From assembly GCA_900316975.1 (NCBI GenBank), contig ONFA01000008.1, positions 4,164 to 68,163 of the forward strand: a DNA stretch of 64,000 nt. The letters are read 5' to 3'. This DNA is from an uncultured Prevotellaceae bacterium (GTDB lineage Bacteria; Bacteroidota; Bacteroidia; Bacteroidales; Bacteroidaceae). Shown here one piece after another: positions 3,761-57,818 of this stretch. Every line of letters starts with the position of its first letter. The first letter of the stretch is position 1. Position numbers and translations under genes: made by a program. Under the pieces are notes generated by a model. That model did not search any database and was not told the DNA's origin. It saw nothing but the letters and a program-made list of their open reading frames with translations.

Positions 3761-3768
3761 CAAAGATA
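3761..3768 (-). promoter_or_regulatory. -7 promoter box TATCTTTG for the histidine kinase gene, with ctcatt-type upstream module
   Basis: The minus strand reads ..ctcatttctcatttctcaattattttccgTATCTTTG, 20 nt before the ATG at 3741. The same TTTTCCGTATCTTTG module occurs at 52945 and 55833. Confidence 0.6.
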
Positions 3769-3951: not shown

Positions 3952-5265
3952 TTATGCGTACATGGCAACGATTGCCTCGTAGAGTTCCTGCTTGCCAGAA
4001 GTCTGCTTGGGTTCGCCAACCTTCTTGCCGTACTCGTAAACCTGCTCGAGAGTGAGTTTGCCATCCTCGAAGTCCTTACCGATACCGCTGTCGAAGGAAG
4101 CGTAACGAGCCTTCTTCATCGCGCAGTATGGAGACTCCTCAAGGAGTTTAGCAGCAGACTCAAGAGCGCGAGCCATAGCGTCCATACCAGAGATGTGAGC
4201 GATGATGATGTCCTCGAGGTCGGTAGAGTTACGACGAGTCTTAGCGTCGAAGTTCGTACCACCAGTGCCGAGACCACCGCCACGGATGATTTCCATCCAA
4301 GCCTGAGTGAGTTCGTAGTTGTCAATTGGGAACTGGTCTGTATCCCAACCATTCTGGTAGTCACCACGGTTAGCGTCGATAGAACCGAGCATGCCAGCGT
4401 CAACTGCACAAGCGAGTTCGTGCTCGAAGGTGTGACCTGCGAGTGTAGCGTGGTTCACCTCGATGTTCACCTTGAAGTCCTTGTCAAGGTTGTGAGCCTT
4501 CAAGAAACCGATGACAGTCTCAGTGTCAACGTCATACTGGTGCTTAGATGGCTCCATTGGTTTTGGCTCGATGAGGAAAGTACCCTTGAAGCCCTTGCCA
4601 CGAGCATAGTCGCGAGCCATAGTGAGCATAGTAGCCATGTGCTCCTTCTCACGCTTCTGGTCTGTGTTCAGAAGGCTCATGTAACCTTCACGACCGCCCC
4701 AGAATACATAGTTCTCAGCACCGAGTTTGATACCTGCGTCGATAGCGTTCTTGATCTGAACGATAGCGCGAGCCACCACGTCGAAGTCTGGGTTAGTAGA
4801 AGCACCATTCATGTAACGGCCATTACCAAACACGTTAGCAGTTGACCACAACAGTTTGATGCCTGTCTCCTTCATCTTCACAGCGAGGTAGTCAGTGATT
4901 TCCTTGAGGTTTGCCTCATACTCCTCAACAGATGCACCCTCTGAAACGAGGTCAACATCGTGGAAGCAGAAGTATGGGATGCCGAGTTTCTGCATGATTT
5001 CGAAACCAGCGTCAGCCTTATTCTTTGCGATTTCAACGGCATTAGCACCTTCGTTCCAAGGGAACTTCTTAGTACCACCACCGAACTGGTCGCCACCTTC
5101 TGCACAGAGTGTGTGCCACCATGCCATAGCGAAGCGAAGCCAATCTTTCATTGGCTTGCCCATGATCACCTTCTCGGCGTCATAGTAATGGAATGCCATT
5201 GGATTCTTTGAATCCTTGCCTTCGAACTTGATTTTACCAATCTCTGGGAAAAATTCTTTAGCCAT
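3952..5265 (-). CDS. xylA: Xylose isomerase
   Basis: 437 aa. MAKEFFPEIGKIKFEGKDSKNPMAFHYYDAEK, FCFHDVD, WGGREGY and EPKPMEP are hallmark XylA strings. Confidence 0.97.
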   Translation of the reverse strand: MAKEFFPEIGKIKFEGKDSKNPMAFHYYDAEKVIMGKPMKDWLRFAMAWWHTLCAEGGDQFGGGTKKFPWNEGANAVEIAKNKADAGFEIMQKLGIPYFCFHDVDLVSEGASVEEYEANLKEITDYLAVKMKETGIKLLWSTANVFGNGRYMNGASTNPDFDVVARAIVQIKNAIDAGIKLGAENYVFWGGREGYMSLLNTDQKREKEHMATMLTMARDYARGKGFKGTFLIEPKPMEPSKHQYDVDTETVIGFLKAHNLDKDFKVNIEVNHATLAGHTFEHELACAVDAGMLGSIDANRGDYQNGWDTDQFPIDNYELTQAWMEIIRGGGLGTGGTNFDAKTRRNSTDLEDIIIAHISGMDAMARALESAAKLLEESPYCAMKKARYASFDSGIGKDFEDGKLTLEQVYEYGKKVGEPKQTSGKQELYEAIVAMYA

Positions 5266-38774: not shown

Positions 38775-38804
38775 TAATATAAGTTCCGGATGTTTTATTT
38801 CGTT

Positions 38805-42604: not shown

Positions 42605-43432
42605 TCACCGAGCCAGTTTCTTTTTCATTTTCTTCATTTCTTTCAACGATGCCTTGCCTGCCTTTTCACCCATGGCAATCATCTCCGCTATTTTCTTTGG
42701 CGAGAAATCCTCTGGCCCATATCCTTTCAGTCGTGGATTGATATAGATGTCAGCATCTTCGCAATTCTGTTGGTATTTCTTTGCGTCAAGCCGCAACGAC
42801 GACGAGGATTTGTTCACTGTCAAATCCACCGCTATCACAAAGTCTGCCCCCATGTCTCTCGCCACATCCACAGGCAAATTGTTCAGCACACCGCCATCCA
42901 CAAGCCGCATGCCGTTCATCTTCACAGGCTTGAACACCAACGGAATCGCCATGCTGGCACGCATCGCTTGAGCCAGATCACCTTCACGCAACACCACCTC
43001 CCGCATCTTATTTATATCCACCGCCACACAACGGAAAGGGATGGGCAGGTCGTCAAAATTGACCGACCCTCTATCGCCCGTCATCTGCCGCAACGGACGC
43101 ACGATGCTGTCACCCATCAGCGAACCGGCAAACATATCTGTCCACTGTTGGGAACGAAACATCGAATCCAACTGCTCACTGCGATACCCTAAAGCATAGA
43201 GTCCACCCACAATGGAACCAATGCTCGTGCCCACCACCATGTCAATTGGCACACCAGACTCCTCCACATATTTCAGCACACCCACCGTGGCAGCACCTTT
43301 TGCACCACCACCACCAAGCACCAACGCCACTTTGGGACAAACTTTCTTTCCATCTGTAGAAAAGGACGCATCCTGTGCCTTCACTGCCACACATACAAGC
43401 AGCAACAGAATGAAACACAGTCTCTTCTTCAT
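42605..43432 (-). CDS. Patatin-like phospholipase with signal peptide
   Basis: Signal peptide MKKRLCFILLLLVCVAVKAQ. Oxyanion motif GGGGAKG. Nucleophile elbow GTSIG. DGG-type Asp motif (LVDGGVLNNLP). Confidence 0.85.
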   Translation of the reverse strand: MKKRLCFILLLLVCVAVKAQDASFSTDGKKVCPKVALVLGGGGAKGAATVGVLKYVEESGVPIDMVVGTSIGSIVGGLYALGYRSEQLDSMFRSQQWTDMFAGSLMGDSIVRPLRQMTGDRGSVNFDDLPIPFRCVAVDINKMREVVLREGDLAQAMRASMAIPLVFKPVKMNGMRLVDGGVLNNLPVDVARDMGADFVIAVDLTVNKSSSSLRLDAKKYQQNCEDADIYINPRLKGYGPEDFSPKKIAEMIAMGEKAGKASLKEMKKMKKKLAR

Positions 43433-45553: not shown

Positions 45554-45722
45554 GAAGTTAAAGGAGTTAGAGGAGTTATCGCTCCGCTCAGAAGTTAAAG
45601 GCCGATACTCTAAAAAATGAAAGAATGAAGGAATGAAAAGTTGCCCTCAACTCTCAACTGTCAACTCTTAACTCTAAACTGTCAACTCTCAACTCTAAAC
45701 TGTCAACTCTCAACTCTTAACT
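45554..45722 (-). repeat. Dispersed intergenic repeat family A, copy 3, fused to an 11-unit heptad array
   Basis: Same core as copy 2. It is followed by caactct caactgt caactct taactct aaactgt ... from 45648, and the array runs into the stop codon at 45723-45725. Confidence 0.85.
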
Positions 45723-46145
45723 CTAAACCCTCATCCCTTTCAAGAACTTTCCAAACTCCTCCATCACACACTGTGTGGCAATCTCCACATTCTTCACCCT
45801 GCCGAAGTCCTCACGCAAACACATCGAATGCACATCACCTTCACTACCCCATGCCACCCAAATCTCCACTTCATGTCCCTCCCATGCTTCCGCATAACCT
45901 GTGGAAGCCAATGCATAGTCGGTATGGAACAATCGGCATGCCCCCTTCACCATCTCTTCCGCCACCTGACGCGACACCACACCATACCTCTCAATCATTT
46001 CTGCCGGCACACCCAACATTTGTTCCTTCACCTCATTCTGATATGCCACCAATCCACCCACAAAGTAACGACTCGCACCACTTCGAGCCGTGATGGCAGA
46101 CGCAATGCGACCACCCGTACACGATTCCGCTGTCGAAACTGTCAT
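45723..46145 (-). CDS. CinA-family C-terminal domain protein (PncC-like nicotinamide-nucleotide amidase)
   Basis: MTVSTAESCTGGRIASAITARSGASRYFVGGLVAYQNEVKEQMLGV is the canonical CinA/PncC block. ORF trimmed to the ATG at 46145 outside the promoter cassette. Confidence 0.85.
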   Translation of the reverse strand: MTVSTAESCTGGRIASAITARSGASRYFVGGLVAYQNEVKEQMLGVPAEMIERYGVVSRQVAEEMVKGACRLFHTDYALASTGYAEAWEGHEVEIWVAWGSEGDVHSMCLREDFGRVKNVEIATQCVMEEFGKFLKGMRV

Positions 46146-46175
46146 AAAACTTCTTCCTTTTGATGATTTGCGATG

Positions 46176-46316
46176 CAAAGGTAGGAAATAAAGTGAAAAG
46201 TGGAAAGTGAAAAGTGAAAAATCTATATTAGTAGCCATTCGGACTGTTCCTCATAACAAAGTAACTTAGATTTTTCACTTTTCACTTTCCACTTTTCACT
46301 TTATTTCCTACCTTTG
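46176..46316. promoter_or_regulatory. Perfectly palindromic bidirectional promoter cassette (50-bp arms)
   Basis: 46176-46225 (caaaggtaggaaataaagtgaaaagtggaaagtgaaaagtgaaaaatcta) is the exact reverse complement of 46267-46316. Each arm ends in a TACCTTTG -7 box facing outward. The spacer is 41 bp. Confidence 0.85.
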
Positions 46317-56807: not shown

Positions 56808-57818
56808 ATGGCACGTCATTTGCTTTCCAACATCAGTTCCGCCTATATCGAGGCTGCGAACCGTTTGCGACCCAAGACCCGCAAACGGAAGATTGTGGCG
56901 TATGTGGAATCGTATGACGACATCTTCTTCTGGCGGGACGTGCTGAGTGAGTTTGAGGACGAGAACACCGCGTTCGAGGTGATGCTGCCCAGCCGAACCA
57001 ACTTGAACCGTGGGAAGAAAACTGCATTGATGAACAAACTTGGAGAGTCTTTAGGAGGATACATGATTGCCTGCGTGGATGCCGACCTCGACTATCTCTT
57101 GCAGCGTCACACACCTTCCTCCCAAAGGATGCTTGACAACCCTTATGTGCTCCACACCTATGCTTACTCCATCGAAAGTTTCCAGTGCTATGCCCCCTCG
57201 CTGCACAATGTGTGTGTGATGGCAACCCTAAACGACCGCGACATCTTTAACTTTGAGGAATACCTGCGCCAGTACTCTGAAATCATTTATGAACTGTTTG
57301 TCTGGATGGTGTGGTTGCATCGACGTGGACGCTATAATGACTTTCCCCTCACGAACTTCAACAACATTGTGTCGGTGGAGCAACTCAATGTATTCAAGCC
57401 CATCGATGCACTTGAACGTGTGCGCAAGCAGGTGAACCGCAAATTGGCTTGGCTTCAGCAACACGTGAAAGATGCCAAGGGGAAACTCACCCCGTTGAAA
57501 CAGGAACTTGCCGAACTCGGGGTGAGAAAAGACAACACCTATCTCTTCATCCAAGGGCACCACCTGATGGAAAATGTGGTGGATGCCGCTCTGACCCCCG
57601 TGTGCACCATCCTTCGACGCGAACGGGAAAAAGACATCAAGATGCTGGCACGGGGCAACAGCCAGCAGATGAACAACGAACTCTCCTGCTATTCCCACAG
57701 CCAGTTCCAACCAGCCCAGATGCTACGTCGCAACACCCAATATAAGGATTGCGACGCCTATATTATGCTACGGAACCAAGTGGCTGATTTCTTGCAGAGA
57801 CAACAGAACAAGAACTAA
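56808..57818 (+). CDS. DUF4435/Toprim-like protein (AriB/OLD-nuclease-like)
   Basis: KIVAYVESYDDIFFW (Toprim-type Glu) and IACVDADLDYLL (DxD) have the order and spacing expected for DUF4435. 336 aa. Confidence 0.7.
   Translation: MARHLLSNISSAYIEAANRLRPKTRKRKIVAYVESYDDIFFWRDVLSEFEDENTAFEVMLPSRTNLNRGKKTALMNKLGESLGGYMIACVDADLDYLLQRHTPSSQRMLDNPYVLHTYAYSIESFQCYAPSLHNVCVMATLNDRDIFNFEEYLRQYSEIIYELFVWMVWLHRRGRYNDFPLTNFNNIVSVEQLNVFKPIDALERVRKQVNRKLAWLQQHVKDAKGKLTPLKQELAELGVRKDNTYLFIQGHHLMENVVDAALTPVCTILRREREKDIKMLARGNSQQMNNELSCYSHSQFQPAQMLRRNTQYKDCDAYIMLRNQVADFLQRQQNKN

Follow-up and report, generated by a model that had tools for sequence, protein, structure and literature searches.

Correia elements (NEMIS) of Neisseria are palindromes of 100−155 bp with outward promoters, whose hairpin transcripts are processed by RNase III; they carry 26-bp terminal inverted repeats (TIRs), a TA target duplication and an integration host factor (IHF) site. 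Chloroplast minute inversions represent the 'flip-flop' of hairpin loops in plastid spacers. BrickBuilt, a P. gingivalis MITE (miniature inverted-repeat transposable element), is an intergenic repeat specific to the Bacteroidales, is present in 19 copies per genome, contains internal tandem repeats and inverted-repeat (IR) ends, and exhibits bidirectional promoter activity in some segments (PMC4596501); many DNA inversions are also known in the Bacteroidales (PMC12632263). Repetitive extragenic palindromic (REP) sequences fall into super-families defined by GTAG/CGTC tags (PMC3733652) and are targets of insertion sequences (ISs; Tobes & Pareja 2006, as cited in PMC8040213), and template switching is known to create perfect stems, repair mismatches and invert loops (PMC8794818). 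The element considered here is a 145-bp palindrome at positions 46174−46318 of a 64,000-nt stretch of DNA from an uncultured Prevotellaceae bacterium (positions 4,164−68,163 of contig ONFA01000008.1, assembly GCA_900316975.1; hereafter the window), located between a gene for a CinA C-terminal domain and a GH43 lipoprotein gene. The palindrome is considered, with a probability of roughly 0.68, to be a copy of an undescribed dispersed hairpin-repeat family of rumen Prevotellaceae that lies between two pre-existing back-to-back promoters and whose arms have been homogenised.

The family was counted by exact matching of a 19-mer, GAAAAATCTAAGTTACTTT, against contigs of one genome per species. The 19-mer is present at 44 loci, 38 of which (40 matches) belong to 13 rumen Prevotellaceae/Bacteroidaceae metagenome-assembled genomes (MAGs): UBA4359 contains 17 matches, Reindeer_1_mag_61 five and RUI029 three, while RUG204, RGIG4883, Sheep_2_mag_43, ruminal_MAG_222 and SRR8387717_bin.84 contain two each and five more MAGs one each. 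The other six loci are non-members, namely five single matches in unrelated taxa and one in an uncultured Bacteroides sp. that lacks the architecture. None of the 44 loci overlaps the window, whose context (STEW19, RUG, RGIG and reindeer, sheep and goat MAGs) points to a rumen Prevotellaceae source. The preliminary description of this DNA had placed the palindrome in a non-mobile intergenic region and had proposed a search for further genomic copies; such copies prove to be numerous, at unrelated loci, and three are present in the window itself.

Members share the plan (AAGTGAR)n - AAAATCTAAGTTAC - loop TTTTGC.AATGA...CCGAATGGCAGG - GTAACTTAGATTTT - (YTCACTT)n, with an inner stem AAATCTAAGTTAC, a conserved loop sequence CCGAATGGCAGGTAAC, the conserved loop motif CCGAATGGC, and consensus ends (T)TAAGTGAA...TTCACTTA(A). 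Both halves are present in 37 copies (two of them in the window), with stems of ~27−45 bp and loops mostly of 30−35 nt, and six copies are half elements; overall the arms span 27−58 bp and the elements 59−145 bp. In an alignment of 36 family members (A3) 81.8% of the stem cells are paired, compared to 36−49% when the partner columns are slid, and three of the four copies folded as RNA have energies between -70 and -86 kcal/mol, with z-scores from -13 down to -17. An nhmmer profile built from A3 and run on the window identifies copies at 46191−46301, within the palindrome, and at the two further sites listed in Table 1; the loop of the second full copy contains an intact TACTTTTG box (56734−56741) aimed at the downstream gene. 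The heptads followed by AAAATCTAAGTTACTTTT at 1122−1169 and 56703−56740 correspond to the inner part of the right arm sequence. The half copy marks the left edge of a larger structure: the entire 245-bp spacer that separates convergent genes at 1114−1358 forms a large, imperfect, nested palindrome, whose successive layers toward the centre are AAGTGAA-type heptads, AGGAGTTAA/GGAGATA 9-mers and a central GC-rich hairpin GCCGCTGAAAAGCGGC.

No Rfam family reaches its gathering score anywhere in the window; under permissive settings the element matches plant miRNA precursors in the generic manner of a long hairpin, with scores far short of the threshold, and these matches were rejected. A small open reading frame (ORF) in the loop was likewise discarded on inspection of A3 by eye, as the subfamilies with 31-nt and 35-nt loops do not share its ATG or its reading frame. 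Nothing specific on Prevotella REP/MITE elements or on heptads at Bacteroidota promoters was found in the searchable literature.

The window copy consists of two perfect 52-bp arms, 41 bp apart, around a symmetry centre at 46246; if two mismatches are allowed the repeat reaches 57 nt at 96% (46174−46230/46262−46318). Each arm contains the heptads AAGTGAA AAGTGGA AAGTGAA AAGTGAA (period 7, 4.4 copies by TRF). The preliminary description had reported a 50/50 inverted repeat at 46176−46225 and 46267−46316, with four AAGTGRA heptads and an outward-facing -7 box in each arm; the repeat is real and sits inside the slightly longer perfect one, and both the heptads and the boxes are confirmed. The repeat is far beyond chance: an arm 24-mer is expected 0.00 times in shuffled sequence, and the single-strand DNA fold of -60.4 kcal/mol compares to -13.8 ± 2.8 kcal/mol in shuffles (z = -16.9), with the same palindrome reaching -86.1 kcal/mol as RNA. 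Extrusion as a cruciform, which had been suggested, would be disfavoured in duplex DNA by a 41-nt centre. The asymmetric core, if read on the minus strand (…AAGTTACTTTGTTATGAGGAACAGTCCGAATGGCTAC…), aligns to the family loop; it carries the conserved loop motif on that strand at 46234−46242 together with a degenerate loop box GTTACTTTG, and its inner stem is decayed on one side, where TATTAGTAG stands in place of AGTTACCTG.

Both outward boxes (TACCTTTGC) fit TANNTTTGY, the -7 consensus of Bacteroidota (PMC12632263). A -33 TTTG is present at neither promoter in the region ~19−21 nt upstream of the box, which is occupied by heptads (CACTTTC/CACTTTT); the other heptad-array promoters of the sample likewise have no -33 TTTG. 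Divergent promoters are likely at the arm ends, given the consensus fit of the boxes, their distances to the two start codons and their conservation in orthologous spacers; they would drive the CinA-domain gene on one side and the GH43 gene on the other, and each would see the same upstream sequence of four heptads, ATTTCC and TACCTTTG. Their mirror-image appearance arises because a palindromic repeat is flanked by two consensus boxes. The CinA-domain gene starts at the ATG at 46145 rather than at 46238, because the longer ORF would translate the heptads.

Related loci were collected with the GH43 protein as the query of a metagenome scan, which returned 80, ten of which keep the divergent CinA neighbour (the labels L001−L135 denote related loci or contigs outside the window). 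In L060, L084 and L111 (GH43 ~82% identical) the same divergent pair is separated by a spacer without the palindrome, in which back-to-back -7 boxes stand 42−44 bp apart with a single four-heptad array between them; the heptad of this array differs by lineage (CTCTAAA, AATTGAA, AGTTTAG). L059/L063 also lack the element and have their -7 boxes 24 bp apart. The box precedes the CinA ATG by 27−30 nt in L055, L060, L084 and L111 and by 60 nt in L059, and the GH43 ATG by 24−48 nt in L055, L060, L084 and L111; the boxes are kept at these orthologous spacers although the surrounding sequence has diverged. Because the element-free orthologous loci retain both -7 boxes, the promoters are considered older than the palindrome, which is present in the window lineage and L055 and absent from L060, L084, L111 and L059/L063. 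A comparison across strains had been proposed in the preliminary description; among the relatives compared here the two boxes are conserved and the palindrome is missing from several lineages. One family copy would have come to lie between these older back-to-back sigma-A promoters of the Bacteroidota type, its arm ends abutting their boxes.

L055 (GH43 91% identical) carries the orthologous element in the window orientation with imperfect arms: the left heptad arm is identical to that of the window at 35/35 positions, the core at 32/41, the untranslated regions are more diverged, and the right arm has a 31-nt insertion. Because L055 carries an orthologous copy, the element must have entered the spacer before the window and L055 species split; the perfection of the arms appears to have been kept in the window lineage and lost in that of L055. 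In a strain 97.7% identical to the window (L054, positions 1−888) an IS sits precisely on the left arm's inner border, at the point equivalent to window 46224/46225; it encodes a DDE_Tnp_1_3 transposase (E 6e-64), its end reads ...CGAACTCACGTTA, unlike the palindrome arms, and the core and right arm still adjoin GH43.

The two arms evolve in concert. Non-consensus heptad letters have a Watson-Crick partner in the other arm in 23 cases versus 12.3 ± 2.8 expected (p = 0.0004), a partial effect, and both arms of the window copy carry the variant heptad as mirror images (GTGGAAA/TTTCCAC); the junction reads CGAC..AAAGTG on both sides in L055 and GGAAATAAAGTG on both sides in the window. Partner-matched heptad letters and a concerted junction change therefore indicate homogenisation between the arms. 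The mechanism is presumed to be replication template switching or arm-to-arm gene conversion, either of which would maintain the identity of the arms, and the same process could flip the loop. The suggestion in the preliminary description of gene conversion or selection was accordingly a fair reading; the recent duplication proposed beside it, taken as one of a promoter, is not supported, as the arms belong to a dispersed family and the promoters predate the palindrome.

The gene neighbours of the copies were taken from a crude ORF map, in which 38 copies are resolved on both sides. Fifteen are convergent (>E<, where E is the element), 14 tandem in the sense >E>, eight tandem in the sense <E<, and one divergent (<E>). 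Divergent sites are depleted (1/38 versus 18−20% of background spacers in the same loci; p = 0.005 by number and 0.0025 by length), and an excess of convergent sites is seen (p = 0.02); 37 of the 38 copies adjoin at least one gene end, and in many of them the stop codon forms the very start of the element (…TAAGTGAA…, …TGAAAGTGAA…). This distribution is that of REP-like or terminator-like hairpins and not of promoter elements. Family copies that follow stop codons would be transcribed into a long 3' hairpin, the descending arm of which is U-rich; from this placement the usual role of the family could be that of a 3'-end hairpin (in termination, processing or stabilisation), or the copies could be tolerated selfish DNA. 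Most family loops in A3 also contain an intact -7-like box, GTTACTTTTGC = TACTTTTG, aimed through the right arm. In >E> contexts with 20−56 nt to the next start, such as that of the gene at 56808, the loop box is the only -7 box available; the bias of the loop box toward downstream genes (8:3 with an intact box versus 3:5 without) is not significant. These arrangements hint that the loop box may serve as a promoter.

The arms also resemble a promoter layout that is common in this clade. A census of ~680 kb of related DNA yielded 183 candidate promoters, in which an array was defined as a 28-nt stretch of at least 85% lag-7 self-identity no more than 50 nt upstream of the box. Such an array is present just upstream in 26/183 (14%); the same promoters give 0% at lags of 5, 6 and 10 and 2.7% at lag 8, and coding controls give 0/867 at lag 7. 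The layout features four heptads of arbitrary sequence (for example CTCAACT, CTAAACA, TCCTAAT and AATTGAA), a T-rich linker of 6−8 nt and TAyCTTTG(CA); divergent gene pairs share one array between -7 boxes 42−44 bp apart. Arrays next to -7 boxes are present in the window at 3762−3809, 40359−40404, 43450−43508, 53028−53076, 55708−55751, 63566−63611 and 63661−63717, and the same layout is seen at L021, L041, L060, L084, L111, L116 and L128. In L107 and L123−L125 (GH43 ~76% identical) a lone TTCACTT x4 array stands before a -7 box with no palindromic partner; AAGTGAA-type heptads therefore occur also as plain promoter arrays. Period-7 arrays are widespread in the spacers of the window, and two begin right after stop codons (45646−45733 and 54162−54188). 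The first of these is a 12.6-copy array (CTCAACT, with a 21-bp super-period) that starts from the CinA stop codon; in the 99.2%-identical strain L005 its unit order differs at unchanged length, and an adjacent 8-bp array (45612−45638) has one unit fewer, so that the arrays at 45612−45733 appear to turn over fast.

Of the 74 element ends, nine have an outward -7 box within 90 nt, and in seven of these the box lies 32−33 nt from the inner stem (the window and L050 on both sides, L028, L035 and L048). L028 displays the identical junction CACTTTATTTCCTACCTTTG at a different, non-orthologous gene. L050:7788−7930 is located in RGIG4883, a roe deer rumen MAG, and has outward boxes on both sides, one of its genes lying beyond the end of the locus. 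The outer 10 bp of the window palindrome, TGCAAAGGTA, are the only part that exceeds the usual arm end of the family, and they equal the commonest -7 box of the clade, TACCTTTGCA. Judged by this layout, the element arm fills the slot of 'four heptads plus linker' on both sides.

Several observations weigh against the family reading. The palindrome is the sole divergent copy of the 38 and so may not be an ordinary passenger, and it has the longest and most perfect arms in the sample (145 bp in total versus 59−121 bp). The 35/35 identity of the left arm between two species hints at constraint on the arm sequence itself, and global covariation over the 44-pair stem is weak and not significant versus column shuffles, an analysis that is limited by slippage of the heptad register. 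With regard to the 3'-end role, the features of a canonical intrinsic terminator are missing, as the stems are AT-rich and the loops 30−35 nt long, and the genome of the window has classical GC-rich terminators elsewhere (e.g. 48047−48095); a sigma-70 promoter and terminator scan found no terminator in the element, the scan being uninformative for Bacteroidota promoters. No consistent target-site duplication was identified, the ends being ragged from variable heptad copy number and the flanking TTAA/TAA itself palindromic, and no cognate transposase was found, a wider search for a matching IS having not been made. Mobility is therefore taken from dispersal only, because neither a target-site duplication nor a cognate transposase was found. 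The TA on either side of the window copy was considered as a target duplication and rejected, as it is merely the TA of each -7 box; if the element were cut out, the two boxes would overlap, which is not the arrangement of the actual empty sites.

The alternatives differ in how much of this they explain. Misassembly from mis-joined reads, a concern already raised in the preliminary description, is extremely improbable: several assemblies do break at the palindrome or carry Ns inside it (contigs L001−L003 and L007 end at or within it, and the L135 scaffold has Ns in the left arm), yet different assembly tools give the identical 145 bp in independent assemblies (L005, a SPAdes-style NODE contig, L006 and L132/L134), the k=141 contig L004 extends across the right arm and so links the core to GH43, a related species has the orthologous, partly decayed copy of L055, and dozens of paralogous copies are built on the same plan. 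A more involved question is raised by L052/L056 (mutually identical) and L053, in which the 41-bp core is exactly reverse-complemented between unchanged arms (145/145 in inverted alignment). The GH43 side of the flipped L053 is 99.5% identical to the unflipped L005 and 98.7% to the flipped L052; because L053 is closer to L005 than to L052, the flip, if real, recurred among strains ~1% apart. All three flipped contigs, however, come from one '__coassemble' project, while every other assembly has the window orientation (L004, L005, L006, L132/L134, L135, the IS-interrupted L054 and L055), which cannot be ambiguous in L004, L054 and L055. At k < 54 a de Bruijn graph gives an assembler no means of orienting the core, and a search for extra flipped copies via neighbouring proteins returned only the window orientation or a gapped scaffold. 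The odds that the core flip is real are put at roughly even on these contigs. If it were real, the core could act as an inverton-like switch, shifting an asymmetric site (CCGAATGGC or the loop -7-like box) and alternately favouring each gene; recurrence of the flip, the breaks and Ns expected if both forms coexist, the intact TACTTTTG in most family loops and the lack of another -7 box in the short >E> contexts would all suit this idea. A regulated switch is nonetheless improbable, because TAnnTTTG is absent from both strands of the core (TACTTTGT), the -7 boxes are in the arms, where a flip leaves them untouched, and no recombinase is encoded among the eight neighbouring genes scanned for domains (42605−53817), although a global invertase elsewhere is possible; furthermore, no flips are seen in three groups of orthologous family copies across MAGs (10 loci), and the loop-box bias noted above falls short of significance.

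The preliminary description had suggested that the palindrome could bind a symmetric regulator; as a model, this would be a locus-specific inverted duplication of one promoter region that formed a symmetric operator, at which a dimeric regulator co-controls both genes. The perfect 52-bp symmetry and the unchanged left heptad arm of L055 would fit such an operator; it is nevertheless considered very unlikely and is already ruled out in large part, since these arms and this loop recur at dozens of unrelated loci, mostly gene 3' ends. A symmetric sequence-specific regulator of the heptads is also unlikely because the equivalent four-heptad arrays at other promoters have unrelated sequences, and no functional link between the CinA-domain and GH43 genes is evident from their domain content. 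What stands of the identical mirror-image promoters described for the two genes is that both boxes fit the consensus and are conserved in orthologues; an origin of the palindrome by duplication of a promoter is not supported. Alternatively, the element could be a mobile promoter cassette, a MITE-like unit with outward promoters in its ends, in the manner of Correia elements or BrickBuilt, that brought both promoters on inserting. The fixed 32−33-nt spacing of its outward boxes, the recurrence of the junction in L028 and the presence or absence of the element by lineage at an orthologous locus are compatible with this, and BrickBuilt, with its internal tandem repeats, is an example of bidirectional promoter activity in a repeat of the Bacteroidales (PMC4596501). 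The cassette is still unlikely, as both boxes are already present, equally far from the start codons, in the element-free orthologues, only 9/74 element ends have a box within 90 nt, and the ends are ragged (59−121 bp) and show no target-site duplication of a consistent kind; TACCTTTGCA is just the most frequent -7 box in the clade, and the trend in the sample is that arm-adjacent boxes appear where a gene start adjoins the element and are absent at convergent copies. A wider speculation, which is rather doubtful at present, is that exactly four 7-bp repeats and a short T-rich linker may form a functional, sequence-independent promoter module of rumen Prevotellaceae that replaces the -33 element, in which case the AAGTGAA-arm palindromes might be portable terminator-plus-promoter cassettes made from this module; with loops able to flip, the window copy might then serve as a compact bidirectional switch or insulator for its two genes. 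A family copy set between two older promoters, its arms homogenised, thus remains the preferred reading of the locus, the features of which are collected in Table 1.

Table 1. Positions of the palindrome, its parts, the adjoining genes and the other family copies in the window.
Feature	Position	Strand	Sequence or description	Evidence or remark
CinA C-terminal-domain gene	45723−46145	-	140 aa	PF02464, E 1.3e-34
GH43 lipoprotein gene	46348−48024	+	558 aa	PF04616, E 5.6e-20
-7 box, candidate promoter of CinA-domain gene	46176−46183	-	TACCTTTG; + strand reads CAAAGGTA	30 nt before ATG 46145
-7 box, candidate promoter of GH43 gene	46309−46316	+	TACCTTTG(C)	31 nt before ATG 46348
Left arm	46174−46225		TGCAAAGGTA GGAAATA (AAGTGRA)x4 AAATCTA	52/52 complementary to right arm
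Right arm	46267−46318		mirror of left arm	52/52 complementarity (exact reverse complement)
Left heptad array	46190−46220	+	AAAGTGA x4.4	TRF
Right heptad array	46272−46302	-	TTTTCAC x4.4 on + strand	TRF
41-bp asymmetric core	46226−46266	-	family loop and decayed inner stem	family alignment A3
Exact family 19-mer	46258−46276	-	GAAAAATCTAAGTTACTTT	inner stem and loop start
Second full copy	56701−56806	+	begins at stop codon of upstream gene	nhmmer E 9e-25
Half copy	1126−1169	+	heptads and AAATCTAAGTTACTTTT, just past stop codon	nhmmer E 1e-8

The eight genes at 42605−53817 comprise two patatins, a thioredoxin-like protein, CinA, GH43, an esterase, a GH3 and PNP. The window also contains a second dispersed intergenic repeat of ~110 bp, AGTTGAGAGTTGAGGGCAACTTTTCATTCCTTCATTCTTTCATT.TTTAGAGTATCGGC.TTTAACT.CTGAGCGGAGCGATAACTCC...., at 38775−38937 and 45529−45645, with a reverse-complement relative at 40−100; two minus-strand genes, unrelated to each other, have this repeat upstream, and it consists of tandem units of 7, 8 and 9 bp. 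Repeats of 7 nt are further present inside long ORFs at 2346−2379 (TCCGTTG) and 31841−31893 (GTCCGTT x7.6), where they are read in frame as 21-nt/7-aa repeats (…DNGQ…).

Rumen Prevotellaceae are abundant and mostly uncultured, and their non-coding DNA is poorly annotated. An apparently unique, 'designed' palindrome becomes, as a copy of a repeat family, a site at which the hunt for a locus-specific regulator is no longer a sensible focus. The family breaks short-read assemblies, attracts ISs, abuts promoters at a fixed distance and may flip its loop, with consequences for MAG quality, promoter prediction and inverton-calling pipelines, which would flag such sites. The stereotyped four-heptad array that occupies the -33 place in about one in seven candidate promoters, no description of which was found in the searchable literature, may outrank the palindrome in interest.

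Compared to the described systems, the element shares some features with each. The 26-bp TIRs, TA duplication and IHF site of Correia elements were not found here, and the -7 boxes pre-exist at empty sites. BrickBuilt has a central 23-nt minisatellite, leader and tail units and small IR ends, while here 7-nt units form the arms around a conserved loop, and no sequence similarity between the two would be expected. Terminal inverted repeats, small size and presence/absence polymorphism are properties that the element has in common with MITEs. Bacteroidales invertons have inverted repeats that flank a segment seen in both orientations (here a putative flip, from one project only); they feature a promoter inside a segment of at least 100 bp, short IRs and a dedicated recombinase, whereas here the arms carry the candidate promoters and the 41-bp segment contains no -7 box. 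Template-switch hairpins (PMC8794818) also display perfect stems, loops in either orientation among close relatives and repair of stem mismatches; as most descriptions of these concern short hairpins of RNA genes and plastid spacers, their extension to a bacterial repeat with 52-bp arms is inferred. The family resembles ERIC-type (enterobacterial repetitive intergenic consensus) repeats in dispersal, hairpin structure, 3'-end bias and use as an IS target. The likeness to REP sequences, bacterial interspersed mosaic elements (BIMEs) and REPINs is broad: these too occur in tens of dispersed copies, are strictly extragenic, imperfect palindromes and form stem-loops after stop codons or between convergent genes, have proposed roles in termination and mRNA stabilisation, and serve as IS targets, as seen here in L054. 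In contrast to REP sequences of 20−40 bp each the family is much longer (~85−145 bp), its arms are heptad arrays of variable copy number, the GTAG/CGTC end tag is absent from its consensus ends and its hosts are Bacteroidota rather than Proteobacteria; its best classification is that of a new family among the dispersed extragenic palindromic repeats (REP/MITE-like).

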